Positions 5,124 through 64,000 of a stretch of DNA of 64,000 bases are shown piece by piece. The stretch is from Adineta vaga (taxonomy: Eukaryota; Animalia; Rotifera). Position numbers and translations under genes: made by a program. The DNA lies in the NCBI GenBank assembly GCA_021613535.1, contig CP075492.1:14643205-14707204 (forward strand), written 5' to 3'. How positions within the stretch are numbered: the first letter of the stretch is position 1; the number at the start of each line of letters is the position of its first letter. The notes under the pieces were generated by a model. That model was given only the letters and a program-made list of their open reading frames with translations, was not told the origin of the DNA and did no database searches.

Positions 5124-6152
5124 ATGTCGAGTTCAATCAATAGTTTTGTTACGAATCTAAACCTGATCTCGACTTGGATTAATCGCGTTTTTCCAGTTTT
5201 ACAAATTGTTTTTGGCACATGTGGAAATCTGTTCAACATTATCGTGTTTACTCGACCGACATTACGCGACAATCCGTGTTCAATGTACTTTTTAGCGGGC
5301 ACAATTAGTAACTTTATTGAAATTTATATGGAGATACTTTATCAATATCTTAAAAGTAATTGGAACTGGGATCCAACGAATACCAACACTATTTGGTGTA
5401 TAATACGTAACTGGTTGACATATCCTGCTTTATGTCTCGTACTATGGTTTATCGTTCTATCAAGCTTCGATCGATTTCTTATAAGTTCACATAATGTACG
5501 AATTCGTCGCATGAGTAATACATCAGCAGCTAAGAAAACAATCCTATTCACCATTTTATGTTTTTTCCTGATTTATGCACACATGCCATTTTTTTATAGA
5601 GCTATTAGACTCGGTACTTTGAACATTTGCACTGTTCAATCATCAGAATATATAATTTTTTCTAATATTTTATTTGTTATGGTTTTCTGCCTTTTACCGA
5701 TCCTATTTATGGTCATTTTTGGTACTTTAACATTTATCAACGTTCGTACAATACGCAATCGTATTAATCCACAATTCAACAACACAAGACAAGAACGTAT
5801 ACGAGCCAATGATCGTCAACTGACTAGAATGCTGCTATCACAAGTACTAATCACTACGCTACTGTCAGTTCCCTATTGTTGCATCAACATGTATAGCACA
5901 TTTGTGTTAACCTTGCTTAAAAAGCAACTTTCAACATCTGATCGAGCAATTTTCAGTCTGACATTTTATGTTACCCGAACACTTCATTTCACCAATCCTG
6001 TGATTGGATTTTACGTATATACTTTGAGCAGTTCAAAATTTAATGCTGAATTCAAACGATGCATTCGATATGGATTGAGAATCATTTTCACAACAACAGG
6101 TATCATAAAATATCTGCCACGAAGAAGGCAACAAGTACTACTCAATCTTTAA
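5124..6152 (+). CDS. Rhodopsin-like 7TM receptor (GPCR), single exon
   Basis: 7TM profile with FDRFL (DRY-like) after TM3 and NPVIGFYVY (NPxxY) in TM7, followed by a helix-8-like FNAEFKRC. The first ATG is at 5124; the track start at 5088 is TTG. An acceptor-like cag at 5078-5080 suggests a possible upstream exon or UTR intron. Confidence 0.7.
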   Translation: MSSSINSFVTNLNLISTWINRVFPVLQIVFGTCGNLFNIIVFTRPTLRDNPCSMYFLAGTISNFIEIYMEILYQYLKSNWNWDPTNTNTIWCIIRNWLTYPALCLVLWFIVLSSFDRFLISSHNVRIRRMSNTSAAKKTILFTILCFFLIYAHMPFFYRAIRLGTLNICTVQSSEYIIFSNILFVMVFCLLPILFMVIFGTLTFINVRTIRNRINPQFNNTRQERIRANDRQLTRMLLSQVLITTLLSVPYCCINMYSTFVLTLLKKQLSTSDRAIFSLTFYVTRTLHFTNPVIGFYVYTLSSSKFNAEFKRCIRYGLRIIFTTTGIIKYLPRRRQQVLLNL

Positions 6153-20101: not shown

Positions 20102-21127
20102 ATGTCCACTATTAATATTCTTATCGATCAAATCAATGACGCAGCGTCAATATGTTTTCTCACAATATCTATTGTGAATTTTATCTTAGGTTCCATTGGA
20201 CTTCTCTTAAATATCTATGTTTTTTCTCGATCAATTCTTCGTCGTGAACCTTGTGCAATGTATTTTCTTTCATCGACAATTTACAATTTATTTGTTGTAT
20301 TTATTGTTATGCCTGTTCGTGTCCTTTCCAATGCATATAATATATCAGCATCCAATTATAATCTTGGTTTATGTAAATTTGAATACTTTATCTTCTATGC
20401 TACACGTGCCACATCAATTTGGTTAATTGTTTTAGCATGTCTTGATCGTTATTTACATAGTTCATCATATCCACATATTCGTCGATTGAGTTCAATGAAA
20501 ACGGTCAAATTATCAATTACAATTATTGGAATAATAGTGCCAATTTTATATAGTCATATGGTTATTTATTATGAAATATACTATGTATTAGATCCATATG
20601 GTAGTATAACACCTTCTTGTCGAAGTCAAAAAGGTCTTTATAGTACATTCTTTGGATTTTCACATATGGTTGTGTATTCACTTTGTCCATCATTTTTAAT
20701 GTTAGTTTTTGGCTGTTTAACATTGAGAAATATACGTCAACAACGTCGAATGACTCGACAATTAAATGAAAATATAAGAATTCGCCGAAGAGATACTCAA
20801 ATGTTACGAATGTTAACTGCTCAAGTAGTTGTAATTATTATTGCAACATTACCATTTTCAATTCATCAACTTTATATATCATTTACAAATACATTAGTTA
20901 AGAGTACACTTCGAATTGCTCAAGAAAATTTATCTGCACGAATTACTGGTATCATGACATATTTTGCACATTCAACTAGTTTCTATTTGTACACATTAAC
21001 TGGAACTATTTTTCGAAAAGAAGTTAGCAAGTTTATTCGAATCTGTTGGCAATCCAATGAAAATCGTATACATACAATTGACAATGAACGACAACAAGTA
21101 GATGTATTACAAAATAATAATGTGTAA
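20102..21127 (+). CDS. Rhodopsin-like 7TM receptor (GPCR), single exon
   Basis: 341 aa with a 7TM profile and a DRY-type motif, ACLDRYLHS, after TM3. ATG at 20102, TAA stop. Confidence 0.75.
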   Translation: MSTINILIDQINDAASICFLTISIVNFILGSIGLLLNIYVFSRSILRREPCAMYFLSSTIYNLFVVFIVMPVRVLSNAYNISASNYNLGLCKFEYFIFYATRATSIWLIVLACLDRYLHSSSYPHIRRLSSMKTVKLSITIIGIIVPILYSHMVIYYEIYYVLDPYGSITPSCRSQKGLYSTFFGFSHMVVYSLCPSFLMLVFGCLTLRNIRQQRRMTRQLNENIRIRRRDTQMLRMLTAQVVVIIIATLPFSIHQLYISFTNTLVKSTLRIAQENLSARITGIMTYFAHSTSFYLYTLTGTIFRKEVSKFIRICWQSNENRIHTIDNERQQVDVLQNNNV

Positions 21128-33195: not shown

Positions 33196-34128
33196 TTATC
33201 CATTAAGTTCACCGGTTAAAATCCATCTAGTTCCTTCTTCATCTAATTCTTCTCTTGCTCGCTGTAGATATATCTCACTGTCTTCATCTGTTAATATTCC
33301 TTTCCAACGATCATTCGTTCCTTGACAAAAAAATGACTTAGCGCCACCTAAAAACTGTTCTTTTTCTACCATTTTATCTGCATTTGTTTTCATATAATTA
33401 AATGAACAATGTTCTAAAATATCATTCCATCGTAAAGGATCAATATCAATATTAAGAAATGTTGCAATTCGTTTGATTTCATTTGGTAAATCTTTTTTTA
33501 ATTGATAATAATGAACTAAAAGTATATTTGGTAAATGACGCATATTCCACCAAGATTTTATATATGTGAAAAATGATGTTTCCGATTGAGCAACAATATT
33601 TGATTCAAAAAGTTCATTGACAGAGTTCGGTTTGACAACACCTTCGGAAGTACCATTTATACGATGATTATAAATACTACATGCAACATCACGTCCGTCA
33701 CGAGCAACAAAAATATATTTGGCTTTCGATGAGAAGAGAAGTGCATCAAATGGTAAATGACTTTTAATAAATCGTCGATGAGTTTGTTGTTCTAAAATTT
33801 CGAGAACTTTCTCATTCGAACCATATTTGTCTTTATTGAAACGAAAATCAAGCCATGGTGAAACATCCTTTACATTGATAGACTCACTGCCATTGAATAT
33901 TAATTGACCAACGATTTGTTGCATCCATGTTGTACCACATTTTGGAAATGTGTCGATAATAATATCATTATCACGATATTGAAAATGATTCCATAGTTTG
34001 GAATCAAACCAAAAATTTTCAAGTTCGATTTTTTTCCTTGGATATAAAGTGTAGATGTCAGACATTGTTCTCTTGTTAACGAAATGAAAAAGAATAGTTG
34101 TTGTTTTAAAGATTTCAAAAGGTAACAT
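33196..34128 (-). CDS. Cytosolic sulfotransferase (SULT family), single exon
   Basis: It has the PAPS-binding 5'-PSB motif TFPKCGTTWMQQIV, the 3'-PB region RDGRDVACS, and SULT-like C-terminal conservation. The ATG is at 34128; an alternative start (MSD) lies 21 codons in. Confidence 0.85.
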   Translation of the reverse strand: MLPFEIFKTTTILFHFVNKRTMSDIYTLYPRKKIELENFWFDSKLWNHFQYRDNDIIIDTFPKCGTTWMQQIVGQLIFNGSESINVKDVSPWLDFRFNKDKYGSNEKVLEILEQQTHRRFIKSHLPFDALLFSSKAKYIFVARDGRDVACSIYNHRINGTSEGVVKPNSVNELFESNIVAQSETSFFTYIKSWWNMRHLPNILLVHYYQLKKDLPNEIKRIATFLNIDIDPLRWNDILEHCSFNYMKTNADKMVEKEQFLGGAKSFFCQGTNDRWKGILTDEDSEIYLQRAREELDEEGTRWILTGELNG

Positions 34129-36388: not shown

Positions 36389-36826
36389 TGAACAATAGTA
36401 CAACTGGAAATCCTCGTACTTGAATGACGGCTAATAAGAATGAACTTTCTTCTTGTAGAACGCTTGATTGCAAAGCAGTTCACACGTAAGTTTCAATAGA
36501 ACATGAAACAAATCAAACAGTGCTGTGTGTATCTATTTAAATAAAGAGAGAATACATCTTTGAATATTTATCGAGTTCGTATACTTGTATTGATAAACAA
36601 CCTATTCATCACATTTTACCTGCATATTTGATTGACAGAATAAATCATATTCGTCGTTTTATGAATAGATATCAATTCATTATCACAATGAAGCTTTCTT
36701 TCTTTTTCTACATACGCCATCCAAACATTCTATCTACTGAAATAAGTATAAAGAGACGAAGCACTCAATAATTACCAAGATTAAAGAGTAAACGATTGCA
36801 TTTTCAAATTGTATATTGCAACAGAC

Positions 36827-37945
36827 ATGATGATTTCTTCGTTTCTTGTCGTCTTCTTCTTCTTATTGAATCAATGTAGTTCATATCCGCAATTTGCTTT
36901 AAAGTTACAACCCGATGCATTACATCCTTTTCAAGAACCAGGCCCATTTGATATTCGTGGTCCATGTCCAGGTTTAAATACAGCTGCCAATCATGGTTAT
37001 ATTAGTCGTAATGGTATCACAACATTTGCAGAATTAGTTCAAATGCAGCAAGAGTTATATAATGTTGGTCTTGATTTAGCTCTTCTTTTAGCTACTATTG
37101 GTGTTGCTCTCGATGGTGATATCATTACAGGTAAATTATCGATTGGAAAAGAATCAACAGCTGTTCCAGGACTTCTACGTACACCAGGTGGATTAAATGC
37201 ACATAATAAATTTGAAGGTGATACTTCATTGACACGAAATGATTATTACTTAGCTAATGGAGATAATTTCAAATTTAACGGAACTTTATACGGAATGATG
37301 TTTGCTGAAGCACAAAATAATGGTGGCTTATATAATTGGAAAACAATGGCTGACTATCGTTATAAACGTTATCAACAATCATTAGCAGAAAATGGACAGT
37401 TTCTTTTTCCTCCCCAAGCTATTTTACTTTATGGAGCTGCAACATTTCTTTATGAGTTATTTCCAAATGGAACAGATAAATTACCTACAGAAACGGTGAT
37501 TTCGTCTTTTTTTGGTGCAAAACAAACAGAAAATGGAAAATGGGAAGCAGTATCGGAAAAAATTCCTTCAAATTGGTATAGAAGAGAAACACCATTTACT
37601 TTAGTTGATATTGCTATTCAAGTATTAAAACTGTATTTAGAACATATAGCTTTATTTGGAGGTAATACTGGTCGACCGAATTCATTTATTCTTGATCCTT
37701 TCCAATTAACATTGGATAAACAAAATATTAATGGAATTTTGTGTCTTCTATATCAAACAGTTTTATCTGTTGTACCATCACAAGTAGAAACACTGATTAC
37801 TTCACCTGTAGCTATACTCAATTTTTTAATAGCAAAGTTAGATCCAATATTTGGTGTACAATTTGGATGTCCATCGACTAGTTTTGATCAAGCAGTACCT
37901 ACACCATTAGAAAATATTGTCAAAAAAACAATTCTTCGTCGTTAA
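36827..37945 (+). CDS. Heme-thiolate peroxidase / unspecific peroxygenase (chloroperoxidase-like, fungal type), secreted, single exon
   Basis: A signal peptide is followed by the diagnostic PCP motif, RGPCPGLNTAANHGYISRNG (Cys codon 36965-36967), with acidic residues downstream (EHD region). It is intronless, and the first ATG is at 36827. Confidence 0.85.
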   Translation: MMISSFLVVFFFLLNQCSSYPQFALKLQPDALHPFQEPGPFDIRGPCPGLNTAANHGYISRNGITTFAELVQMQQELYNVGLDLALLLATIGVALDGDIITGKLSIGKESTAVPGLLRTPGGLNAHNKFEGDTSLTRNDYYLANGDNFKFNGTLYGMMFAEAQNNGGLYNWKTMADYRYKRYQQSLAENGQFLFPPQAILLYGAATFLYELFPNGTDKLPTETVISSFFGAKQTENGKWEAVSEKIPSNWYRRETPFTLVDIAIQVLKLYLEHIALFGGNTGRPNSFILDPFQLTLDKQNINGILCLLYQTVLSVVPSQVETLITSPVAILNFLIAKLDPIFGVQFGCPSTSFDQAVPTPLENIVKKTILRR

Positions 37946-42225: not shown

Positions 42226-45200
42226 ATGGCTTTAGATACAGAACAAAATAAGAATTCAATCGCAGATTTGAATAGTACTACTAGCGAAAAAGAAATGACG
42301 ATGCTTGAGACTACGTATGTTTTACTTTCTTATAATTAATTTCACTTATAATTTGTACGACAAACTTTTCATAGAAATTTTGATGATAGATTAGGAACGA
42401 AATTCACCCTCGTAGCTATTTTAACATCCTGTGTATTCTGTGGCATTGCCATGTTTATTGGTATTCTCGTCATTTGTCTAACTACTTCCGAAAAACCAAG
42501 TAATTCATCTTTTTTTCAACTCCTTTTCTGGACATTTAGTAATAATATATTTACTTCTTTAGTACCAAAATGTACTTTAAATTTTGCTCCAACAATGACG
42601 AATCCAATTGAATACAATTATCGTCCACGATCTGTTGCCGTCGGTGATTTCAATCAGGATAATATATTGGATCTTGCTGTTGCTAATTCAGCTGTTGACA
42701 CTATTGTTATTTTCCTTCGACATGAAAATGGTAGTATAGAAAGTCCAATCACTGTTTCAGATGAATCTAATTCTATTCCATATATGCTCGCGGTTAATGA
42801 CTTGAATAACGACAATCGATTAGATATTGCAGTAGCAAACTATGGTACACATAGTATAGGTATTTTCTTCGGACTTGGAAACGGATCCTTTGAGAATTTT
42901 ACAATACTTTCTACGGGTACATCACGTCCTATTTCAATTCTTATAAATGATTTCAATAACGATACATTACTGGATATTGTTACTGTTAATTACGGTACCG
43001 ATAGTATAAACATCTATTTTGGGTACGGAAATGGTACCTTCTCATCACCTGTCACATACTGGCTAGGTTACGATTCTTTGCCATATGCAGTTGCAGCAGA
43101 AGATTTTAATAATGACACACAAATCGATTTAGTTATTGCTAATCATGGTACTAATAGTATCGTTATAATCTTTGGAGATATGAACGGCAATTTCATTAAA
43201 AGAACAACAATTTCTACAGGCTTGAATTCGCATCCCTATTCGATTGCAGTTAGCGATTTAGATAATAACAATTTGTTGGATATTGTCGTTGCTAATTATG
43301 GTACGAACAGTATAGGTATATTTCTTAACTATGGAAATGGATTCTTTTCAAAACAAAATACATATTCATTGGGTACTGCTTCACCATGTTGCATTAGTAT
43401 TGGTGATTTGAATAATGATCATCAAATGGATATTATTGTTACTAATCAAGGTGTTGATAATGTTGCTGTTTTTATTGGCTATGGTAATGGTACTTTTACA
43501 GATCCAAAAATGTATTCAACTGGTTCATTATCTACAATCTCACTTGCTACAGGTCATTTTAATAGTGATAATCGATTAGATATTGTAATCGTTAATAATG
43601 ATACGAATAGTATAAATATTCTATTTGGTTATTATGATGCGTTTCCAATTCAGCAGAAGTTTTCAGCGGGTCCTTCATCGTATTCAATAGATGTGGGTGA
43701 TTTTGATAACAACAATGAACTAGATTTTGTGACTAGTGATCAATTTGATGGAACGATACGCGTCTTCTTAGGACAAGGTGATGGTTCTTTTATACAGAAA
43801 ATCACTAAACTATTCAACTATTATCTGTTTTCTTTGTCTGTTGGTCATTTTAATAACGATGGAAGATTGGATATTGTCGTCACTGATTCTTTCGATAATC
43901 AAGTAACGATCCTTCTTGGACTTGGTGATGGATATTTTGAAGAGCCAAAGAAATATTCCGTTGGTAATGCTCCGTTCTTTCTAACTGTCAGTGATTTAAA
44001 TAAGGATACATATATGGATATAATTATCGCTAATGTGAATAGCAATGATATAACTGTACTTTACGGCTATGGCAATGGTTCTTTCAGAAATGACACCAGA
44101 TATAAAATGGGATCAGTACCGCAATCGGTAGTTGTTAATGATTTCAATAATGATACTCATCTAGATTTAGTCATTGTTAATGGTGGTAACGAAAGTGTGA
44201 GCATTCTACTTGGTTATAGCAACGGTACTTTTTCTGAAGAAACACGATACTCTGTTGGTTCTAATCCGTATAATGGAGCTGTTGGTGATTTTAACAATGA
44301 TAAACGACTAGATATTGTTGTTTGTAATGCAGGTAGTAACGATATAAGTATCTTACTTGGAAATGGTGATGGTTCTTTTCTGAAACAAATGAATTATGCA
44401 ACTGGTGATAGTCCTCGATCTTTAGCTATTGCTGATGTCAATAACGATGCTCGACAGGATATTATCGTTGTTAATACTGATGGTAATACAGTAGGTATTT
44501 ATCTTGGATATGGTAATGGTTCTTTTGAAAATCCCATGATCTACTTGCCTGGTTCTATGCCGCGATGTGTAGCTGTCGGCGATTTTAATTATGACGGTCG
44601 AATAGATATCGTAGTTGGTAATCTAAACGATAATCTAGTAACAGTATTATTTGGTTACGATCGTGGAGCTCTGGAAAACAGAGTAGCTTTCGCATCGGGT
44701 GAAGCTTCACGTTTACAATATGCTGCTGCGGGTTATTTCAATGATGATACATGGCTTGATCTTATTGTTGCTAATTATGGTACTAATGATATAGGTATTA
44801 TGTTCGGTCATGGAAATGGTACATTTGAACGTCAACTATTAATTCCAACAGGTTTAAACTCTGCTCCCAAATCAATCGCTATTCAAGATTTTAATAATGA
44901 CGGTCAACTAGATATTGCAGTAGCGAATTATGGTACTAATAATTTAGCTATGCTACTTGGTGATGGAAAAGGAATGTTTACAAATCAAGCAAATTATGAC
45001 AATAATATGAAGTATCCTCCAGCAACTATTATTGCTGCTGATTTCAACAATAATAAACGATCTGAAATTGTAGTCACATATGATAATACGGACAATATAG
45101 ATATATTTATTTCGTATGATACAGGAACTTTTATTTACGACAATTCTTATACAGTTGGTGTGCTTCCACAATATGCCGCTATTGGTGATTTTAATAATGA

Positions 45201-46758
45201 TATGCAACCCGATATTGTTGTTACTAATATGTGGGATGGTACGATCAGTATACTTCTCGGTTACAAAAACGGTACTTTTGCGAAACAAACTATATATTCA
45301 AGTGATTGGTATCCAATTTTTGTCGTTATAAATGATATCAATCAGGATACTATATTAGATATTATCGTTGTTAGTCGAGTTAAGGATACGGTAAATATTT
45401 TTCTCGGCAATGGAAACGGTACTTTTAGAAATCCAATTAAATATTCAACTGGTAGTGTACCATACTACATTGATGTTGGAGATTTCAATAACGATACATA
45501 TATAGACATTGTTACCAGCAATGCAAATAGTAATGATATGAGTATCTTATTAAATTATGGTAATGGTTCATTCAAAGATCAAATCAAATACACAACTGGT
45601 TCTCATCCTCAATCTATAATTGTCAGTGACATTAATAATGATCGACAACTCGATATCATTGTTGTCAATGAATTTGATAATGATCTCAGCATTTTTCTCG
45701 GTCATGGTAATGGATCTTTTCGAGAACAAATTCGATATTCAACTGGTACTAATCCAGTCTCACTTGTTATTGGTGATGTAAATAATGATACAAAATTAGA
45801 TATTGTTGTTTCTAATAGTGTTACTCATGATATAAGTGTTCTTATTGGATATGGTAATGGATCTTTTCAAAATCAAACAAGATATTCAACTGGTTCTCGT
45901 CCAGGATCATTAAGTATTGGTGATTTCAATAATGATACATTCCTCGATATTATCGTCACTCATTCAATTGCTAATAGTATAAGTGTTTTTATCGGATATG
46001 GTAATGGCATTTTTGCATATCGAATTACATATTCAACGAATGCAGGTCCGAATTCTGTTGTTTTTGCAGATTTTAATAACGATCATCGAATAGATATTGC
46101 TATTGTTTGTAGTGGTTCATCTAAAATTGACGTACTCTTTGGAGATATCAGTCAGTCATTTGTAAAAAAGACAACATTGATTAATGATAATGGATCTCGA
46201 CCGAGATCACTAGTTGCAGGTGATTTTAATCATGACAATCAACTAGATATTGCAGTTGCAAATTCAGGTACTAATAATGTGGGTATCTTTTGGGGTCATG
46301 GAGATATTTCATTTACAAATCAATATATCATTTCAAGTAATTATTCTCCATGGTCTATAACTGTTGGTCATTTGAATAATGACACTCTATTAGATCTTGT
46401 CGTTGCCAATTATCATAACGATAGTATTGGTATATTTTTTGCATCTACAAATAACTCCTTTTCTACACAATACATATTTATAACGGGTTCGAAATCGAAA
46501 CCATATGCAACTGTTGTTGCGGATTTTAATAATGATAATAGACAAGACATTATTGTCGCCAATTATGGCAGTAATGATGTAGGTATTTTTCTTGGTGATG
46601 GTAGTGGTTCATTTGCAAGTATAATGATTATTCCCGTTGGTTACGGAACTCTTCCGTTTTCTATCATCGTTGGTTATTTTGATAATGATCCTAAATTGGA
46701 TTTTGCTGTTATCAATGAAGGCACTGATAATCTAAGAATTTTCTTACAAACATGTTAG
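42226..46758 (+). CDS. Giant FG-GAP/VCBS-repeat beta-propeller protein, predicted type II membrane protein (~1.46k aa), 2 exons
   Basis: Exons are join(42226..42314,42375..46758), with a GTATGT donor and a 60 nt intron. It has a short N-terminal cytoplasmic segment, a TM (FTLVAILTSCVFCGIAMFIGILVI), and about 28-29 tandem repeats of roughly 48 aa (DFNNDxxLDIVVANYGTNSIGILLGYGNGTF...Y..G..P), consistent with four 7-bladed propellers. Confidence 0.75.
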
Positions 46759-48432: not shown

Positions 48433-50003
48433 TTAGTGATGTAAAAGAATACTAATGCTATTCGAATAGAAATTTGCAACAATAATGTCTAGTTTATTGT
48501 CATTATTCACATCAGTTAATGTTATTGCAACAGGACCATTACCAACTGAGTAAATATATTGAGAAGAAAAACTGCCATTGCCAAGATTGAAAAGTACACC
48601 AACATTATTTGAACCATAGTTTGCAACAACAATGTCCAGTGTATAATCGTCATTCAGATCAGCTAACGCTACTGCGATTGGACCACTACTAACCGAATAG
48701 GTTCTTGAGTATTGAAATGAACCGCTGCCTATGTTCAATAATATTCCAATAGTATTCGAACCATAGTTTGCAACAATAATATCAGATTTATTATCACCAT
48801 CTACATCAGTTACTATAACTGCTCGTGGATTGTTTCCAACTGAATACATAGTCGAAGGATAAAATGTACCGTTGCCTTTGTTAAGAAGAATACCGATATT
48901 GTTTGAATAATAATTTGCAACAATAATATCGGGTTTATTATCATTATTAACGTCGCTTGTTGTGATTGAGATTGGATTGAGAAAAACTGGATATGAAGTT
49001 TCAGTAGAAAATGTCGCATTACCCATGTTCAGAAGAACGCAAACTGTGTTCGAATTGTAATTTGCTACAATGATATCGAGTTTGTTGTCACCATTCACAT
49101 CAGTTACTGTAACTGATCTTGGATAGGATACAATTGTATAAATGATCTGAGAAGAAAACGTGCCATTACCGGTGTTAAGAAGAATACAAATATTGTTTGG
49201 AACTGGACTTGCGATGACAATATCGACTTTATCATCACCGTTCATGTCGCCTACGACAGCTGTCATTGGATTAGTACTAGTTAAGTAGGTAATTTGATTC
49301 CGAAACGAACCATCACCTAAATTAGTAAGAACACCAATGTTATTGGAACCGTAATTAGCGACAATAATATCGGATTTGTTATGATTGTTTAAATCGATTA
49401 CTGCGACTGAATACGGTTCATAACCAACTTGATAAGACACTTGAGGGAGAAACATATCACTATTGTTATACACTAAAGAAATATCAGGAAAAACAAGTAA
49501 TATTCTTCTGTATTTCGAAACTTGTTGGTATGAACATAACGTGCAAGACTTACCAGTTGCTATCGTCGTTGCTATTGATGTTGACGAAGTTGACATGAAT
49601 TGATCTGTATTAGAGAAGTAATAGTAACAATAAACAACGTCGCTCGACACAAACAAGAGAGAAATAGATAGCTAATCGTTGCGATTATTTTCAGTAAAAA
49701 CTTACTTGATACTATTGATATTGATGATTGATTACTAAAGATATATGTGGCGTCGACATGAAATTCGATGACAATTGAATGATTCTTCAAAGAAAACAAT
49801 TGACATGTTTTATTCATTGAAAAATAATTTAATGCAAATATGAATTTATTTGATGCTCTAGCCATTTGACATATACATTCCTCTTTTGTTAGATTAACAA
49901 ATGACATATTTATATAATCGACCATTATATTATTCTCTATTTTACCGATAGATATCGATTGACTAGCAGAAAATAACGATAGAAGTAATAATATCCAAAA
50001 CAT
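48433..50003 (-). CDS. Secreted single-propeller FG-GAP/VCBS-repeat protein with N-terminal Cys-containing domain, 3 exons
   Basis: Exons are complement(join(48433..49472,49554..49604,49706..50003)), with GTAAGT donors and introns of 81 and 101 nt. It has the signal peptide MFWILLLLSLFSASQS, a roughly 80 aa domain with 4 Cys, a S/T linker, and 7 FG-GAP-like blades (DxNxDxKxDIIVANYGSNxIGIL). Confidence 0.7.
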
Positions 50004-51724: not shown

Positions 51725-52888
51725 ATGATGCAAACAGAGAATGTGTTTATTATTGCTGGAGCAGGCATTGGAGGTTTAGCAACTGCTTTAGCATTGCAAC
51801 AGAATGGATTTTCGTATGAAATTTATGAACGTGACATAGATTTTAATTCTCGTCGACAAGGTTATAGTTTAACTATTCAAAAGAATGGATTTGCAGCATT
51901 GAAAGAACTTGGTTTAGGTGATTGTGTACGAGAGATGGGTGCAGATTCTGTAATCGCAGGAACAGCTACATACAACAATTTGGGTGAAGTGATCTTTTCT
52001 AAATCTAAACGAAATAGGGATCGATATAATTTCAATAATTTTGCAGTACCACGACAATCTCTTCGTACATGTCTAATGAATGAATTAAAACCAAATGTTA
52101 TTCATTGGAATAAAGAAATTATTCGATATGAATCGTTACAAAATAATTCTCATCAAATTCGAGTTATCTTCTCGGATAATACATCCGTTGTTGGTCGTGC
52201 ATTGATTGGCTGCGATGGAGTTCGTAGTACAATTCGTAAACAAATGTTAGGTGATGATTTGAATTATCTTGGTGTATGGGCGATTAATGGTATTTCATCT
52301 CATCAACAGAATCCACTTCTTGTCAATAAAACTGTTCAGATGCTTGATGGAAAATCTCGTTTATTTATTAAACCATATTCTCTTCATAAATCTATGTGGC
52401 AATTGACTTTTCAAGTTTCGAAAGATGATCAAACTTACAATCAAAATGATTTAGAAGATTTATTAAATAAAGCAAGACATACTACGAAAGATTGGTATGA
52501 ATCAATTACAAAATTAATTCATGACACGTCAGTTTCAGATATTCGTGCTGGTCCAGTTTTTGATCGAGATCCATTGGAAATTATTCGCAAAGACGTCGAA
52601 TGTGTGACAATGTTAGGTGATGCTGTACATCCTATGAGTCCTTTTAAAGGACAAGGAGCGAATCAGGCATTGACGGATGCAGTTAATTTAGTAAAATTTA
52701 TAATGAAATATCAAGAAGAGAATGATGGCGTCGAAAAAGCTTTTCATGATTTTGAAAATGAAATGCTCATACGTTCAAAACGTTCTGTTTTACAATCAAG
52801 ATCAGCGGTAAAATTTCTTCATACTAACAATGCTCTTCTAAACACAAATATGTCTCAATTTATCAGTGGTAAACTTGTATTCGAATAA
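51725..52888 (+). CDS. FAD-dependent aromatic-ring monooxygenase (salicylate hydroxylase-like), single exon
   Basis: It has an N-terminal GxGxxG FAD fold (FIIAGAGIGGLATALAL) and the C-terminal FAD motif GDAVHPMSPFKGQGANQALTDAVNL. ATG at 51725, TAA stop. Confidence 0.85.
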   Translation: MMQTENVFIIAGAGIGGLATALALQQNGFSYEIYERDIDFNSRRQGYSLTIQKNGFAALKELGLGDCVREMGADSVIAGTATYNNLGEVIFSKSKRNRDRYNFNNFAVPRQSLRTCLMNELKPNVIHWNKEIIRYESLQNNSHQIRVIFSDNTSVVGRALIGCDGVRSTIRKQMLGDDLNYLGVWAINGISSHQQNPLLVNKTVQMLDGKSRLFIKPYSLHKSMWQLTFQVSKDDQTYNQNDLEDLLNKARHTTKDWYESITKLIHDTSVSDIRAGPVFDRDPLEIIRKDVECVTMLGDAVHPMSPFKGQGANQALTDAVNLVKFIMKYQEENDGVEKAFHDFENEMLIRSKRSVLQSRSAVKFLHTNNALLNTNMSQFISGKLVFE

Positions 52889-57609: not shown

Positions 57610-60020
57610 CTATTTCGAGTCTTGTTCTAGACGATTGATATTTGCGAGTTGTTCATCAATTTCCTTGGCTTGTTTCTCCCAGTTCATATCTTCATAGAGT
57701 TTTTTGGCTGCTGTCAAGTTTATACGAGCTGCTTCGAAATCACGTAAGCCAAGTTGAAGATCAGCTAGCTGTATGTGACTTTGAATCACAATGTTCTTTT
57801 TATCTTCGATCTCTTGCAAGTCGTGAAATGGAAGTATCTCATTGCTCTGTACCGTTGCATGATGTTTCAAAAGTCGATACTTCAATGCTGATGAAAGATC
57901 TTTGAGATTGTCTTTGTAGATGTTGGATATACGTTGATAAATGCGAGACAAATCTTCATGATTGTTCTGAGCGACGTAGATCTTACAGATTTCTTTGTAG
58001 TTTATCAGAGCCTCATCAAATATCTCCATCTCTTCCTGAAGCTCAGCAATATTCTTGTAGCATTTGCCCAATTGTCTATCGATAGGTGAGCAAAATTTTA
58101 AAAGAGCTTGAAGTCGAAGTTGTTCGTAGTGTAGAGCAGATTTTTTGTCTTCCTTTTTATCATTTATCTCTTCCTTTTCTAAGTAAACCGTCGATAAGAT
58201 CTGATATAACACTGCTTTTTGTCTTTCATTATCTGGTAACTGATTCAGAGTGGTTTTACAGATTAATATTGCAGCATCATATTGTTCCTGAGCCGACTTG
58301 TCGTCCTCGAAATGAAAGTAATGCAGGCGACCTATTTTCAGATGAAGATTGGCAATTTCGAAACCATTGTTCTCAGGATATCTTTGCCAGATTGTAAGCG
58401 CTTGTTTGTAGTATGTCAATGCTGCTTTGTAATTTTCCCGACCATATCCCTCTTGATATCCACCCAATGCTCTGTATCTCTCGGCCTCCAGTTGTTCTCC
58501 CTCCGAAGTAAATAATTCATTGAGTTCATCGAAAATAGTGTTAATCTCCTCTTCTGGAGCATCTTTGCACACTTTTCCAGCAATGATACTAACACACTCT
58601 TTCAGACTAATTTTTCTGTTCTCGAACGGCAGAATATAATCATCTTCCAATGTCAGCATCACCTTGATAATCTTTTCATCTTCACTGTAACTACTGCTCC
58701 GAAGACGAAGAAATGTTCCCATCATGAGAAGTATTTCTTTCTCGTTGGAGAATTCACTCAAATGAGAAATATCTCCGAAAGGTTTAGAGTTGTATCTGGC
58801 GTTTAGATTAATTTCTAGCAGCACCCGGACGTAACCTTCCATCACTGAGGATATAGGCGGAAGAAAACTGAGCGATAGACGCCGATCAAGCGATGTCGAC
58901 AGAAAACTGGTTAACCTCACCATATAGGCAGACTTTAATGTTTCGACTTCATCCTCAGACATGATCTGTCCTCGAAACACTTGCACTTGTACGTTGTCTA
59001 CGTTGGTGGTTTTGAATGTTTCGTGTTCCTTTTTTAATTGGAGAAATAAATCTTTAATGTAGTAGCCGAATGCAAACATTACTCTGACGTTGTACTGTCG
59101 ATTAGCTTTGTTGATCAAGCGAAAAAAGAAGGTATCCCGTGTATACCACCAAACAGCCTTATCAGGAGTATACTCACGCTCGAACTCATCGATAACACGC
59201 AGTTCTCCAACTTTTCCATCGTAATAATTTCGTAGTTCAGTAGTGAGACGCTGGTGGCATACTTCTCTTGGATAAGGTAAGTGGCAGAGAGCATCCATAA
59301 ATATTACCCACCATGAAGCAGAACCAGATTCTGTTGTTCTATCTTGTTTGTCGAAGTTACCAAATACACCATCCTTCTCTTTTTCCAGATATCTCTTTAC
59401 GTCACTATCGACTGCCTGAAGTAAGGATTTGTGATTCGTGTACACTTTCTTAACCTGCAGTAAAAAAGTGTCTTGCGTCGCAGAAAAAAACTAAGTTTAA
59501 ATCTTACCTTTGTGTACGAACTCGGCCAGCTTTGAAGATGTTCACTATTCTGAGAGTAGACAAAAATTGAACGAATGTTTTGCAAGTGATGAATTTCTGG
59601 AATTAACTGCTTGCCGATGTTGTCTGAACAGACTAGAAAACACACGACATATTGTGACTCTTGTAGATAATGTTTACAGGAGTCTTGATTGTCAAAGAAC
59701 TTGGTGTAGTCGACAATTTCACGTAATTTGGAGATGGTCAGGTCTCCATTTAAGCCATCGTGAACATGGTTATCGCACCAGACTAACTGATGTGACTCAA
59801 GATTGAGTCGTTCACGGTCGAAAAGGCGAGATCGTATAGGGGAATTTCCTTGAATTGTATTATCGGCCGATATCATGGAAGATTGTGATGATCCAACGAA
59901 TGTGTTCATATTTTTTGTAGCCGTTAAATTTCGTCTTCTCAATAGTTTTAACTTTAGTTTGTCTCCATGGCTCGAGAAACATAACATTACTGTTCTGTGT
60001 ATGTGCTGCTTTTTTTTCAT
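57610..60020 (-). CDS. Multidomain protein: unknown alpha/beta N-domain + R-S-ExE mono-ADP-ribosyltransferase (toxin-like ART) + TPR repeat array, 2 exons
   Basis: Exons are complement(join(57610..59454,59508..60020)), with a GTAAGA donor and a 53 nt intron. The ART motifs in order are VQVFRGQ (Arg codon 58972-58974), FLSTSLD (58891-58899), and NEKEILLMMG (ExE at 58735-58743). They are followed by about 350 aa of TPR-like helical repeats (e.g. YKAALTYYKQALTIW, LGKCYKNIAELQ). The alternative start is MNTFVG at 59909. Confidence 0.75.
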
Positions 60021-60822
60021 CGCTTCATCATCATCTCCATGGTTTACGTTTTACGGAGAACAAGTAAAATAAATGTGTTCTCACAATTTCCACTTTTGTT
60101 TGTTTGTCGGAGAAGGCGTAAACACGTGTTTTTACGCGTCCAGACGTGCACATTTCAACACGTTATAAATGTATTTTTGTGAAAAACTTTCTCCGATTGT
60201 GTCTGCCTGGCAAATGTTTGATTCATATATTTTCTTTCGACAGGTTCAACTAAAATAGCAAAAAGTAGAACGACGAGATTATTGTCAGAAACAACCACCA
60301 TGACGATTGTAGGGTGAACCCTATATCAACAATAAAAATTCAACAATGTAAACAAACGTCGTAATGCTTTATTATTATTATTCGATATTTTATTTAACAA
60401 AACATAGTACACAATGATGCTATTAGTCAACACATGATGCAGTTTATTTACTGTCGTTGGTTAGTTTTTTAGACCTTTCATAAAGCGCAGAAGAAATATT
60501 TATTAATGTATATTAAGTATGAATGGTTCTAATTTTGTTAGCCATGACAATAATTTCATCAAGTTTTTTTATGACTTTAGGTGGCATAAAATGACTTAAA
60601 TTTGAGTTCTGATTGATTTAAATCAATCACTTCCTTTTCCCCTGATAACCAGCTTCTTGCATAAGAACAAATTCATCTGGAGGTATGATGAAGATCACTT
60701 CTCTTCAGCTATATATCCTTTTTCATTATTAAGTTCCTATTTGACAAAAAAAGCAAAAACTTTATTAATTTAACAATATCAATCACAAAAAACGACAATA
60801 ATTCGTTCATTTCTTTTGTCTG

Positions 60823-63800
60823 CTAAATATAACTAAAGCAATGATTTCTCCTACAGCTTTGTCGCCATTTTTTCATTGACTTGACAAATTTTTCTTTGTA
60901 CAGTGTTGATGGCAGAACGTACATGATAAAAATCAAAGTCGTAGGAATAAATGCCGTAAAATAACTCGAAACATATAACCAGGAGCTTTGAGATGCTTTT
61001 ACACATCGAAACAATGATGAAATAATAATAAATGGCAATGTGAAGATGACCAATAGCAGAGGACCAATAAGTAACGGTTTGTGTTGATAAACTTGCTCTC
61101 TAAGATGCTGACGGCGACCTTTATATTTTCGAGCTGCTGCTTTTCGACGAACAATTGTATAAATAATGAATAGAGATGAGAAAATATTGATAAAAAATGG
61201 TCCAAGCACATGAAGAAATGAAATTGCTGTTGTATAGATATATAAATTTGATGAATAAAGAGTAACACACCAGACACGATCTTCTTCAGTATCATCAAAT
61301 AAATCACGAGAAAAGCATTCATAAATATTTGAACCGATAAGTAATAATACTAAAACAATCACAATACATCGAGCAGCTTTGATACTATGTGTTTTATTGA
61401 AAGATATTCCTTTCGAAGTATTTATGGCACGTTCAATTGATACACAAGCATTCAACCAATTATTCATCCATGAACAAAATTTCAGTAAAGGTTCAATCGA
61501 CAAACATCCAAAACGAAGAACAGCACGATTTGTTTCTAAATTCATTTGAGAAAGTAAAACAAACCAAAATTTCATCATCAACACGGTAATAGTAATCAGT
61601 GAAGTGATTGACAACATTAAAAGATAAATGCCACATCCAACTACACGCGTATCTCGCCGAGAAAATGTAATTAATGAAAGAATACTATTGACTAAGCCAA
61701 TAACAAATAATATCATGGTAAAAAACATACTTAACTTAACCATTTCAGATTGATTACTTAGACGAATATTTGATCGAATTTCATATCGAAAGAGATCATC
61801 AAGTGTTAATCCTATTCCTTTCGCATAAAATTGACATTGATTACCAAAGAAACAATCAATACAATTACATATAGTTGTAAGTGGACATATTGGATGATCT
61901 TGTAAACATTGTCCATCATTGAGACAATGAACATTTTCTTTGCATTGAAAATCATGTTGATGATCAAATGCAAAACAATTAGCATGATGTTCTGTTGTAC
62001 ATAAACACATATACGATTCATCAAAGAAACATTTTAAATGAGGATTGTTTTGACATAAAGTATGATAATATTTAATTCGTTGAATTCTGAGTAATTTGAT
62101 TTGTTTAGAATCGAGAAGTTCATTAACAGACGGACATCGTCGAGTGGAATCGATTGTTGTTGAGATGTTAGATGTTTCCGATTGTTGAAGCACAGTCAAA
62201 TAATAGTTATTATTCGTTAGAATAAACACCATTTGAAATACTTGTTGGAGATAAAATGTCACATTTCTCTGCAGTGTAGTTATTTTTCTTAGTATTGTTT
62301 CGTGTGCTATTGGTGGCTCCCAGGGAATGTTTGAATAGATAAACGCTATCAGATATGATGATATTTTTCTATCATTGAGAGTGATATGTAACCGTGACGT
62401 TGGAGATTCACATCTTTCTCCTCGAAATTCTTCGGGACATAAACATTCATAACTAGTATCAACCATTCGTTCATCAGTAACAACGCACACACCATTATTT
62501 TCACAATAATTTATTGGACATGAATGTTTGAGCAAACAACGATTACCGAACTTTTCAAGAGGACAAATACAGATTGATCGATTATGTGCACGGTCAATAC
62601 AAATTGAATCAGATGAACAATCATCGCAATCAATTGAAATATGACACTGAGCACCAGTCCAACCTTTCTGACATTGACAAAAGAACTTTTCTTCATTTAT
62701 ATACTTCACACAGATACCATGTTGACATTGAAGAGAACACAAACCAGAATAAGCAATATGATTCGATCCCAAAGTTAATAGAACAGCAAGTCGGTTCACT
62801 GGCAGAAAATTGAAAGGAACTTTGAAATACCAACTAGCAAGATATTCCACTGAAACCTTATCATAAACATCAATGTGAATACTGTAGTTTTTTGAAAGAT
62901 GTTTTGGTCTTGTTGAATACGGAAGATATTTATCGAATGGTTGACCACATGTTATTTTAGCAATATAGATGATTTGTTCATACGATTGTATTTGTTGTTG
63001 ATCATTATCATCATCAATTAGTTTAATGAAAATAGCAAAAGTATGATATCGAATGATAGCTGATAATATTAATGTAAGACTCACTCGTTGATTCTGATAT
63101 TGACATTGATTTCCATAATAATTTGGTGGACATAGACAAATTGTAGTGTCATTTTCATTTCCTAACCAAAGACGCATGGGTGAACCACGTGTGCATTGCC
63201 ATGATGGAGTATAAACGTGTGAAAATTTTTGTGGTGCATCATCAGCAGAAGTGATGATATTATTTTCGACTAATGGACAGGTTTCAGATGATTCTAATGT
63301 GAATGGAACACGAGACATGGTACCAAAACGACAAAGAATATCTTGAACTTCAGTGAGATTATAATCAGTCCATTCTTCACATACGTCTGTATAATATATT
63401 TCATTATGTAAATCACATAGTATAAAAGGTTCGATACATCTTGCGTCATTCAAACAACGAAAACTATATGAAATTCCACTAAAGAAATCTGCTACTCGAC
63501 ATAATTGTGGTTCATCTATTCCGCCAAGACAATCAACAATGCCATTTCTCACTTCATGTGCTGGTATACATATCATTGTATAATTATAGGGTGACGTACA
63601 TTCAAGAAAACGATGAGAACAGTTCGATGGTCGACACTTTTCTTCATCTTTACCATTTTCACAATCCCAAAATCCATCACATCTTGTATAAATATTATTG
63701 CAAGGCCAATATTCACAATCACTTTCATCTGTATAATTTTGTCCATTGATTATTTCAGGTGAAGTATCAATCGTTTTATCACATATTTGATTGAAAACGG

Positions 63801-64000
63801 TATTATCGATAGTTTTCACCTCACTTTCTTCAAATTCACAACCATGTAGTTGAAGTATTGACGATCGACATCGACTTTCATTTGGACATGTAAAACGATT
63901 AGGCTCATTAAGTGAACAACTTAATTTAAAATCTTCTTCATCATCATGCAAGTAACAATCAATGATGTTGTCAGCAATTCGACGTGTTGAAATATATTTG
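60823..64000 (-). CDS. 7TM receptor with large EGF-like/LDL-receptor class A ectodomain; 5'-partial (continues beyond window)
   Basis: The ORF is open to the window edge at 64000. It has an LDLa module (CEYWPCNNIYTRCDGFWDCENGKDEEKC) and multiple EGF-like Cys patterns (CLCPPNYYGNQCQ, CQCQKGWTGAQCH, CLCPEEFRGERCE, CNCIDCFFGNQCQ). The C-terminus has 7 TM helices with SIERAI (DRY-like) after TM3. No introns were detected. Confidence 0.75.
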   Translation of the reverse strand, partial: KYISTRRIADNIIDCYLHDDEEDFKLSCSLNEPNRFTCPNESRCRSSILQLHGCEFEESEVKTIDNTVFNQICDKTIDTSPEIINGQNYTDESDCEYWPCNNIYTRCDGFWDCENGKDEEKCRPSNCSHRFLECTSPYNYTMICIPAHEVRNGIVDCLGGIDEPQLCRVADFFSGISYSFRCLNDARCIEPFILCDLHNEIYYTDVCEEWTDYNLTEVQDILCRFGTMSRVPFTLESSETCPLVENNIITSADDAPQKFSHVYTPSWQCTRGSPMRLWLGNENDTTICLCPPNYYGNQCQYQNQRVSLTLILSAIIRYHTFAIFIKLIDDDNDQQQIQSYEQIIYIAKITCGQPFDKYLPYSTRPKHLSKNYSIHIDVYDKVSVEYLASWYFKVPFNFLPVNRLAVLLTLGSNHIAYSGLCSLQCQHGICVKYINEEKFFCQCQKGWTGAQCHISIDCDDCSSDSICIDRAHNRSICICPLEKFGNRCLLKHSCPINYCENNGVCVVTDERMVDTSYECLCPEEFRGERCESPTSRLHITLNDRKISSYLIAFIYSNIPWEPPIAHETILRKITTLQRNVTFYLQQVFQMVFILTNNNYYLTVLQQSETSNISTTIDSTRRCPSVNELLDSKQIKLLRIQRIKYYHTLCQNNPHLKCFFDESYMCLCTTEHHANCFAFDHQHDFQCKENVHCLNDGQCLQDHPICPLTTICNCIDCFFGNQCQFYAKGIGLTLDDLFRYEIRSNIRLSNQSEMVKLSMFFTMILFVIGLVNSILSLITFSRRDTRVVGCGIYLLMLSITSLITITVLMMKFWFVLLSQMNLETNRAVLRFGCLSIEPLLKFCSWMNNWLNACVSIERAINTSKGISFNKTHSIKAARCIVIVLVLLLIGSNIYECFSRDLFDDTEEDRVWCVTLYSSNLYIYTTAISFLHVLGPFFINIFSSLFIIYTIVRRKAAARKYKGRRQHLREQVYQHKPLLIGPLLLVIFTLPFIIISSLFRCVKASQSSWLYVSSYFTAFIPTTLIFIMYVLPSTLYKEKFVKSMKKWRQSCRRNHCFSYI

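Follow-up and report, generated by a model that had tools for sequence, protein, structure and literature searches.

[quoted passage not shown]

The DNA analyzed here (the window) is a 64,000-nt stretch of Adineta vaga contig CP075492.1 (assembly GCA_021613535.1, positions 14,643,205 to 14,707,204). Translation of the minus strand gave a frame at 60823-63999 with 1058 codons free of stops, terminated by TAG at 60823-60825 and still open at the window end (position 64000), as a preliminary description made from the letters alone had proposed. At 32% GC, the probability that 1058 codons (3177 nt open) would lack a stop by chance is ∼3e-37. Residues 405-1403 of the 1416-residue A. vaga hypothetical protein I4U23_015598 (P0001) are identical to the window frame at 999 of 999 positions. 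The identity begins at residue 405 of this protein, and the ∼404 residues before it are therefore encoded beyond the window end. The in-window frame makes up the 3′ three-quarters of a single A. vaga gene, the product of which is best explained as a type-I-oriented cell-surface receptor of ∼1460-1500 aa. Upstream of TM1 the sequence carries 11 N-glycosylation sequons and 59 cysteines, and a hydrophobic, signal-peptide-like N-terminus was found in most full-length relatives. The ectodomain length of ∼700 aa given earlier is corrected to ∼750 aa inside the window and to ∼1150 aa in full, with the ∼404 outside residues included. That ectodomain and seven-helix (7TM) region form one gene rather than two was borne out: in A. 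ricciae the orthologue is encoded by one continuous 4461-nt ORF, and the full-length proteins among the best 150 representative matches are ∼1500 aa long and carry the 7TM at the C-terminus.

The public gene model I4U23_015598 departs from this frame at its 3′ end. Removal of its 266-nt “intron” (Table 1) deletes TM7, helix 8 and the tail and appends ELNNEKGYIAEEK, encoded at 60698-60736. Orthologues P0002 and P0004 retain a continuous TM7 and tail. Judging from these sequence comparisons, the intron that removes TM7 is probably an annotation error, and the public A. vaga model is flagged here as likely to be wrong in having TM7 spliced out.

Table 1. Features of the receptor gene in the window, listed from the N- to the C-terminus (residues are numbered from the first in-window codon)
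Feature	Coordinates	Strand	Basis or remark
In-window coding part	60823..63999	-	1058 codons + TAG; ∼404 5′ codons beyond 64000
LDLa-like module, C-terminal half, cut by window end (residues 1-28, RIADNIIDCYLHDDEEDFKLSC)	63916..63999	-	
LDLa-like module 1 (residues 73-122), acidic core CDGFWDCENGKDEEKC	63634..63783	-	Pfam and regex
LDLa-like module 2 (residues 127-167)	63499..63621	-	Pfam Ldl_recept_a E=0.010, 16.5 bits, under cut-off
LDLa-like module 3, degenerate (residues 182-207)	63379..63456	-	Family consensus comparison
EGF1 (residues 269-300)	63100..63195	-	Invariant Cys C269, C288, C290, C299; AF2 beta-hairpins
Beta-sandwich domain 1 (residues 301-420)	62740..63099	-	No Pfam family
EGF2-4, three tandem Notch-like modules (residues 421-531)	62407..62739	-	Pfam, PDB match, Foldseek; translation checked
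Beta-rich domain 2 and short helical segment (residues 532-648)	62056..62406	-	AF2; no Pfam family
Cys-rich EGF-like unit (residues 649-685, including CLCTTEHHANCFAF) and EGF5 (residues 686-722)	61834..62055	-	Regex, AF2
Juxtamembrane stalk QFYAKGIGLTLDDLFRYEIRSNIRLSNQS (residues 723-751)	61747..61833	-	Translation checked
Divergent class A seven-helix bundle (residues 752-1028)	60916..61746	-	AF2, PDB profile, Foldseek
E/DRY-equivalent E856-R857-A858, cytoplasmic end of TM3	61426..61434	-	Aligned to GPR4 DRY
TM7/helix 8 turn (P1030), helix 8 and basic tail (residues 1029-1058)	60826..60915	-	AF2 helix, model residues 298-323
“Intron” of public model I4U23_015598, 266 nt	60737..61002	-	P0001 leaves the ORF after FRC

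From the N- to the C-terminus, the protein is composed of LDLa-like modules, EGF1, a beta-sandwich, three Notch-like EGF modules and a second beta-rich domain, followed by a Cys-rich EGF-like unit, EGF5, a conserved stalk, a class A 7TM, helix 8 and a basic tail. In the half module at the window end (conservation 0.71) the acidic D-C-x3-DDEED cluster is legible; this piece alone had no Pfam match. Module 1 scored E=0.022 (15.4 bits) against Pfam Ldl_recept_a, under the cut-off of 24.1 bits, and gave weak PDB matches to the LDLa modules of RXFP1 and VLDLR. Module 3 reads CDLHNEIYYTDVC against the family consensus FRCxNxxxCxxxxxLCDxxxDCxxGDDExFC and has lost the acidic cluster of the paralogues. 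The best LDLa match of the full protein P0001 was at E=0.0085; Ldl_recept_a was matched at E≤0.01 in 26 of the 32 relatives, with paralogues exceeding the cut-off. The earlier claim of at least one LDLa module thus stands in part. It is supported by the acidic core of module 1 and by paralogue P0036, in which the region equivalent to modules 2 and 3 reaches 29.6 bits, above the cut-off, with the third module matching best, but the modules of the window copy itself are sub-threshold and degenerate.

Five to six EGF-like modules were counted in the ectodomain, three of them Notch-like, in agreement with the at least five EGF-like patterns noted at first reading. The Pfam EGF model matched the window protein at 31 bits (threshold 21.5). 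Residues 421-531 matched Notch2 EGF11-13 in a sequence search of the PDB (E=6e-9) and Notch1 EGF11-13 in Foldseek (E=8e-7, 28-32% identity), so that the six-cysteine EGF fold is found here by both sequence and structure. These three tandem modules share fold and arrangement with Notch EGF11-13; however, the D-x-D-E-C calcium-binding linkers are absent by direct reading, and the modules stand in a GPCR ectodomain. EGF1, the Cys-rich unit and EGF5 were recognized by their cysteines and AF2 models: residues 649-722 contain invariant cysteines and show hairpins in the model, and EGF5 is also matched by regex. The AF2 model of beta-rich domain 2 has its strands within model residues 274-355 and its helices within 364-390. 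Searched in isolation against Pfam, the two beta domains gave nothing useful even at E≤10. Their origin as duplicates of each other was considered and rejected (hhalign probability 0.2%).

The EGF5-to-stalk junction (CFFGNQCQFYAKGIGLTL) is the best-conserved segment of the protein. The top 18-mer (residues 716-733, the end of EGF5 plus stalk) scored 0.87, with 12 of its 18 positions conserved at ≥90%. Conservation was equal in the ectodomain (0.5-0.72) and the 7TM (0.49-0.73). The near-invariance of the stalk is a property of the 32-sequence alignment; a strict stalk regex matched few distant members, and inspection showed a looser family-wide motif, CQFxTxGFGLSLDAILGYxI. The stalk was modeled by AF2 at low confidence (pLDDT ∼46-60).

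The last 300 residues form a divergent 7TM of class A (rhodopsin-type). The AF2 model (pLDDT 82, pTM 0.81) shows seven long helices (TM1 752-779, TM2 788-819, TM3 825-866, TM4 869-897, TM5 917-956, TM6 962-996 and TM7 1006-1028) and helix 8, and an extracellular N-terminus agrees with the hydrophobic segments and the signal-peptide-like N-termini of paralogues. All 55 PDB matches of the family 7TM profile were class A (GPR4 at 2.5e-10, MT1 at 1.9e-9) and none class B; the top 50 Foldseek hits of the 7TM model in the PDB were likewise all class A. Pfam 7tm_1 was matched in 14 of the 32 relatives (best 6e-15). The 7TM of the window protein itself matched no Pfam model even at E≤10, and the window protein alone matched MT1 at 4.7e-6. 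GPR4/GPR68 and melatonin receptor MT1 were the best profile matches (38-43 bits across TM1-TM7) and have in common with the window protein the TM3-ECL2 disulfide and the E/DRY arginine; identity is only ∼15-18%, which, on sequence, indicates class membership and not orthology.

The conserved positions of the bundle are N771, the C832-C911 pair, E856-R857, P934 and P989. The pair corresponds to the C3.25-ECL2 disulfide (C832 nearly invariant, C911 invariant, both aligned to the GPR4 cysteines). R857 is invariant in 32 sequences and E856 nearly so, and the third position is variable; the arginine of the DRY motif has been kept and the tyrosine has not. The remaining microswitches are not shared with GPR4, GPR68 and MT1. 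The D2.50 sodium site is an invariant serine, Ser800 (LSITS vs. LSIAD of GPR4). TM6 reads F-T-L-P in place of CWxP, with Ser/Thr at W6.48 and only P6.50 (P989) kept. TM7 has I1023-F1024-x-x-Y1027 (family IFxx(Y/F)) in place of NPxxY, the proline being displaced to P1019 in the MT1 alignment. With D2.50, W6.48 and NPxxY missing, canonical G-protein activation is not assured.

The preliminary description had called the bundle rhodopsin-type and not secretin/adhesion-type, with a DRY-like SIERAI after TM3, a basic cytoplasmic tail and no GAIN/GPS motif visible by eye. These four points hold: the first by the class A matches listed above, the second at E856-R857-A858, and the tail by direct reading (KEKFVKSMKKWRQSCRRNH). 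As for the fourth, GPS, GAIN and 7tm_2 gave no Pfam match in the 32 relatives, and the juxtamembrane 160 residues had zero Pfam matches at E≤10. Neither defining feature of an adhesion GPCR (class B2), a 7tm_2 bundle or a GAIN/GPS before TM1, was found. ADGRE/CD97-EMR and CELSR resemble the window protein in that a long modular ectodomain with EGF repeats precedes the 7TM, and in that a conserved element next to the membrane could work like a tethered agonist; the window protein differs in its class A 7TM and in lacking GAIN and the GPS autoproteolysis motif. The resemblance is convergent in logic, and the protein is not a member of that class.

The family comprises at least 451 clusters at 50% identity (representatives, E≤1e-30), and the 7TM is C-terminal in every full-length family match. 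The named members are all bdelloid (Adineta, Rotaria and Didymodactylos), in match lists that were saturated with bdelloid paralogues. The family is already present in databases, yet our literature search found no paper describing this rotifer receptor family. Homology to A. steineri P0128 (CAF1136684) begins exactly at C..G.QC.FY.KGIGLTLDD and runs to the C-terminus (stalk plus 7TM, 45% identity, E=3e-103), with NHL repeats upstream. P0128 and A. ricciae CAF0927344 (P0132) are bdelloid NHL GPCRs with the same stalk and 7TM, scoring 378-415 bits against the family 7TM profile; their own ectodomain, which lacks EGF and LDLa, is made up of NHL repeats and repeated beta-rich modules. The stalk and 7TM are a cassette that stands behind at least two unrelated ectodomain types, EGF/LDLa and NHL-repeat. 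Inside the window, ORF 42451-46758 was considered as a paralogue and rejected, being an FG-GAP repeat protein. The short 7TM ORFs of the window were rejected as close relatives after a search with the family profile, which matched only one of them, weakly (20102-21127, 20.7 bits).

Class A GPCRs are usually viewed as receptors with short N-termini that bind their ligands in a pocket. Like the window protein, relaxin receptors RXFP1/RXFP2 and molluscan GRL101 (LGR type C) have a class A 7TM and a large ectodomain; theirs contains LDLa modules, where that of the window protein has LDLa-like ones. In RXFP1, the ectodomain drives activation through a hinge/tethered element and ECL2. The window protein differs from LGR type C in that its LDLa-like modules are separated from the membrane by EGF modules and two beta-sandwich domains, and in that they are >500 residues from TM1. 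No LRR was found among the Pfam matches of the window protein or the 32 relatives, as would be needed for LGR type C, and no LGR/RXFP occurred among the 55 PDB profile matches. A recent survey gives LRR and LDLa as the additional domains of the rhodopsin family and places EGF with the adhesion GPCRs (PMC12716839, Table 1). An EGF ectodomain on a rhodopsin-like core, previously called unusual, is indeed so in the literature, but in bdelloid genomes the architecture is common.

We consider it fairly probable that the gene encodes a modular, ectodomain-sensing class A receptor, built on a cassette with adhesion-like logic that works independently of GAIN. The mechanism that we infer is modeled on the ectodomain-driven activation of RXFP1. 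The modular ectodomain would bind an extracellular protein, matrix or particulate ligand, and binding would be relayed to the helical bundle through a rigid EGF5-stalk junction, probably with participation of the conserved acidic ECL2 (RDLFDDxEExRxWCV). Such a relay would resemble the ectodomain-driven or tethered activation of RXFP1/LGRs, or that of the adhesion-GPCR Stachel, with neither GAIN nor autoproteolysis. Signaling would then use the retained E3.49-R3.50, P5.50, P6.50, Y7.53 and helix 8.

Four other readings were weighed against this one. The protein could be a receptor for adhesion, scavenging or endocytosis, with a 7TM that acts chiefly as a membrane anchor or trafficking module, LDLa and EGF that bind cargo or matrix in LDLR-like fashion, and no G-protein signaling. 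In line with this are the missing sodium-pocket and toggle residues (S replaces D2.50, and W6.48 and NPxxY are absent), the modules of LDLR and Notch type and the basic tail. We nevertheless find it unlikely: the invariant R3.50 and the retained TM3-ECL2 disulfide, P5.50 and P6.50 are unexpected for a mere anchor, the best-conserved helices are TM2 (0.73), TM6 (0.69) and TM7 (0.68), and the cassette has been kept behind two types of ectodomain.

A receptor of the conventional class A kind, in which a small diffusible ligand binds in the helical pocket and the ectodomain serves only localization, clustering or co-receptor roles, is quite improbable. The nearest solved relatives of the protein (MT1, GPR4 and 5-HT1B) bind small ligands or protons, and a large lineage-specific family recalls chemoreceptor expansions. 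However, the ectodomain and stalk are conserved at least as well as the 7TM, whereas chemoreceptor-like diversification would be expected in the pocket-lining helices and ECLs. In addition, the proteins without upstream sequence among the best 150 matches lack part of the 7TM and look like fragments.

An artefact, either the joining of two neighboring genes in a single ORF or a pseudogene copy in decay, is very improbable. The departure of the public model at the 3′ end, the degenerate LDLa module 3 and a Cys replacing the family Trp in the TM4 ARW motif of the window copy could be taken as signs of it. Against it stand the long stop-free frame and the single ORF of the orthologue, the same fused architecture in hundreds of clusters from three bdelloid families, and the invariant family positions, all of which are kept in the window copy (by definition). 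An ordinary class B2 adhesion GPCR with a diverged GAIN/GPS and CLCTTEHHANCFAF as a cryptic GPS is essentially refuted by the class A 7TM and the missing GPS/GAIN/7tm_2 matches, the similarity of CLCTTEHHANCFAF to the GPS consensus being superficial (C-x-C-..H..-F-A vs. C-x-C-x-H-L-T-x-F-A) and the one Foldseek match to the CELSR1 CADH9-GAIN region being of low probability (0.51, TM 0.12).

Returning to the ectodomain-sensing receptor, a bolder extension is possible, though we hold it only tentatively: a receptor system resembling that of adhesion GPCRs may have arisen independently in bdelloids, built on a rhodopsin-class scaffold. The cassette ...C-Q-F-x-x-K-G-x-G-L-T-L-D-D-I-L... would then be a GAIN-independent tethered or mechanical activation module, shuffled behind at least two unrelated giant ectodomains and multiplied into hundreds of genes; it would plausibly serve the sensing of surfaces, particles or non-self in an animal that is heavily exposed to its environment.

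The analysis marks out two beta domains that have no Pfam family. It also describes an animal lineage that combined a class A core with Notch-like EGF modules, LDLa modules and these two unclassified beta domains, retained a strongly conserved stalk, used the stalk-7TM unit again behind another ectodomain, and expanded the result to at least 451 clusters. Should the stalk prove to be an element of coupling or a tethered agonist, the family would offer a natural experiment in ectodomain-to-7TM signaling that is independent of GAIN, and would provide a handle on what bdelloids sense.

Translation of the minus strand gives one open reading frame at 60823-63999, of 1058 codons without the stop, which is still open at the window edge; a stop-free run of this length has a chance of ∼3e-37 at 32% GC. 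The preliminary description had read it as an uninterrupted ORF running past the window end, with a rhodopsin-type 7TM bundle of seven hydrophobic helices, SIERAI following TM3 and a basic tail, and all of these were found. The receptor sequence alone gave no match to Pfam 7tm_1; residues 752-1038 (numbered from the in-window part) matched melatonin receptor MT1 (E=4.7e-6). A profile built from 24 family 7TM segments matched 55 PDB sequences, all of class A (GPR4 at 2.5e-10, MT1 at 1.9e-9, also 5-HT1B, chemokine and angiotensin receptors) and none of class B, C or F. The AF2 model of the 7TM (pLDDT 82, pTM 0.81) has seven helices plus helix 8, and its best 50 Foldseek matches in PDB were all class A (TM 0.61-0.72). 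Pfam 7tm_1 was matched by 14 of 32 relatives (best 6e-15).

Motif positions were assigned via the GPR4 and MT1 alignments. The retained class A motifs are N1.50 (N771), C3.25 (C832) with the ECL2 cysteine (C911), E3.49-R3.50, P5.50 (P934), P6.50 (P989), Y/F7.53 and helix 8. D2.50 is replaced by an invariant Ser800, W6.48 is gone, and NPxxY has I1023-F1024 in place of its N and P, a proline being found at position 1019. By sequence comparison and predicted fold, the 7TM is clearly a class A member, and a strongly derived one. Because D2.50, W6.48 and NPxxY are missing, canonical G-protein activation is in real doubt, and the main rival to a signalling receptor is a non-signalling adhesion or scavenger role. 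A reading as an adhesion GPCR is effectively excluded, since all PDB matches are class A and 7tm_2, GPS and GAIN were matched in Pfam by 0 of 32 relatives, in agreement with the preliminary description.

The region before the first hydrophobic helix contains 59 cysteines and 11 N-glycosylation sequons. The EGF-like patterns described earlier were recovered: Pfam EGF was above threshold, and residues 421-531 are three tandem EGFs (EGF2-4) resembling Notch EGF11-13 in sequence (E=6e-9) and fold (E=8e-7). The proposed LDLa module was borne out in part. An LDLa-type acidic core (CDGFWDCENGKDEEKC) is present and 26 of 32 relatives match Ldl_recept_a, but the in-window modules are below the Pfam threshold (E=0.01-0.02), the acidic cluster having been lost from the third; in a paralogue (P0036) the corresponding stretch clears the cut-off. 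In the AF2 model of residues 262-748 (pLDDT 81, pTM 0.70) the order is EGF1, a seven-stranded beta-sandwich, EGF2-4, a second beta-rich domain with short helices, EGF-like hairpins and a short, poorly defined stalk helix. The majority fraction over 32 sequences was 0.5-0.72 in the ectodomain modules vs. 0.49-0.73 in the helices; the modules are conserved to the same degree as the helices, and there is thus no hypervariable domain.

The most conserved 18-mer (residues 716-733, CFFGNQCQFYAKGIGLTL) runs from the end of EGF5 into the stalk, the juxtamembrane segment before TM1, and the second lies at the EGF1-to-sandwich junction. Direct sequence reading shows G-x-x-C-x6-[VLI]-x-[LI]-T-L at all three junctions between an EGF and the next element. 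In the AF2 model the ..TL stretch of junctions 1 and 2 opens a beta domain as its first strand, and the stalk may be what remains of such a strand from a beta domain since lost. Three proteins from Adineta steineri and A. ricciae (P0128, P0132, P0144) reach 7TM-profile scores (378-415 bits) as high as those of true family members; their ectodomains consist of NHL repeats and other beta-rich modules, with EGF and LDLa absent. Within these NHL-repeat ectodomains an unclassified ∼110-aa module occurs three or four times (...YYYE.IQV.V...Y......G.IY...F.P..P..NL...YILVVTT...G.FSI.I.G). The receptor stalk and 7TM share 45% identity with P0128 (E=3e-103), in an alignment that begins exactly at C..G.QC.FY.KGIGLTLDD. 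The homologous segment is therefore combined with ectodomains of at least two types, and on these alignments stalk plus 7TM behave as a reusable cassette.

The structural case is strong: the anatomy, class A membership, the lack of GAIN, and the conserved junction with its reuse are shown, and the mechanism beyond these is a proposal. The proposed ligand of the ectodomain is a macromolecule, a matrix component or a surface, and the rigid EGF5-stalk junction would relay its binding to the bundle, probably assisted by the conserved acidic ECL2 (RDLFDDxEExRxWCV). Such a mechanism would resemble the established activation logic of RXFP1 and glycoprotein-hormone receptors, or that of the adhesion-GPCR Stachel, although without autoproteolysis.

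The best database match is I4U23_015598 of A. vaga (hypothetical protein, 1416 aa), in which positions 405-1403 (999 residues) are identical to window residues. The open frame places the 5' end of the gene outside the window, and the start of the match at position 405 puts the N-terminal ∼404 residues, with additional LDLa-like modules among them, beyond position 64000. After ...SSLFRC the I4U23_015598 model departs from the ORF and joins a short downstream exon; it also has no signal-peptide-like start of the kind found in paralogues. Such a hydrophobic stretch starts most full-length relatives, consistent with an extracellular N-terminal domain. In the A. steineri and A. ricciae orthologues (P0002, 63% identical, and P0004, 62%) the frame runs on without a break through TM7 and tail, which are well conserved, and the A. 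ricciae gene is a single uninterrupted ORF of 4461 nt. The continuous ORF is therefore taken as the real 3' end, and the 266-nt intron is probably an annotation error. A two-gene artefact is effectively excluded, as the single A. ricciae ORF spans both parts.

A full-length search gave 600 significant matches, and all named proteins among the best 120 were from Adineta or Rotaria. Against 1.84 billion representatives the 7TM profile yielded 1640 proteins at E<=1e-3, of which 944 reach E<=1e-10 and 451 reach E<=1e-30. With Didymodactylos carnosus, which comes in through the named clusters, members are present from Adineta, Rotaria and Didymodactylos. Among the matches listed, which are saturated by bdelloid paralogues, no non-bdelloid member was seen, and complete proteins of ∼1500 aa always have the 7TM at the C-terminus. 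At least seven A. vaga loci are among the top matches. In A. ricciae a paralogue is found in tandem; a gene of 1324 aa immediately upstream on a second contig (L002, 1-4183) is probably family member P0006, and the family thus appears tandemly duplicated. Giant genes (>2200 aa) flank the orthologue (locus L001, 1-5315 and 15162-20461), one matching SIR2_2, NPHP3_N and, faintly, nSTAND3.

Positions of the receptor features and neighbouring genes in the window
Feature	Position	Strand	Remarks
Stop codon TAG	60823-60825	-	Translation
SIERAI motif, E856-R857-A858	61426-61434	-	After TM3; translation
Junction 1, GNQCQYQNQRVSLTL	63067-63111	-	Residues 297-311; EGF-to-beta-domain
Junction 2, GERCESPTSRLHITL	62377-62421	-	Residues 527-541; EGF-to-beta-domain
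Junction 3, GNQCQFYAKGIGLTL	61801-61845	-	Residues 719-733; EGF-to-stalk before TM1
Implied intron of I4U23_015598	60737-61002	-	266 nt; removes TM7, helix 8, tail
Terminal exon of I4U23_015598, ending in ELNNEKGYIAEEK	60695-60736	-	Public gene model
TPR_12 gene (7e-11)	57610-60020	-	Adjoins receptor; weak ADP-ribosyltransferase exoenzyme match (E=0.004)
Candidate class A GPCR, no ectodomain	1409-2392	+	7tm_1 24.2 bits, E=2.7e-5
Candidate class A GPCR, no ectodomain	5088-6152	+	7tm_1 38.0 bits
Candidate class A GPCR, no ectodomain	20102-21127	+	7tm_1 56.7 bits
FG-GAP ORF, single, 1435 aa	42451-46758	+	23 matched stretches to Pfam FG-GAP_3 (E=2e-165)
Second FG-GAP ORF	48433-49656	-	Strand opposite to first
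Peroxidase_2 ORF	36809-37945	+	Pfam 2.6e-52
Amino-acid permease	8780-10525	+	Ordinary-looking; 1e-153
Sulfotransferase	33196-34128	-	Ordinary-looking; 2e-49
FAD-binding monooxygenase	51725-52888	+	Ordinary-looking; 2e-20

In the TPR_12 neighbour two ORFs overlap (57610-59445 and 59397-60020), suggesting that a short intron or a frameshift separates them. The three short candidate GPCR ORFs are uninterrupted (327-354 aa); two exceed the 30.5 bits required for Pfam 7tm_1, 1409-2392 falling short of it, and only 20102-21127 matches the family 7TM profile, weakly (20.7 bits). Peroxidase_2 is a mainly fungal family (chloroperoxidase/peroxygenase type), so its ORF is a candidate horizontal acquisition. 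Both FG-GAP ORFs fit the reported A. vaga repeat-protein expansions, and the gene content of the window matches the expanded 7-transmembrane receptor, TPR, NHL and FG-GAP families (Arkhipova et al., 2013; PMC3846280).

Full-text literature searches found no paper describing this architecture or family. A 2025 survey assigns two additional domains, LRR and LDLa, to the rhodopsin family and groups EGF with the adhesion GPCRs (PMC12716839, Table 1). Some members carry the automatic database name 'G-protein coupled receptors family 1 profile domain-containing protein', others 'EGF-like domain-containing protein'. The feature is real and was correctly read, and its interpretation is supported; the architecture, earlier called unusual, is ordinary within bdelloid genomes. 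The receptor is a class A GPCR whose ectodomain architecture is undescribed in the literature searched, in proteins already present in public databases.
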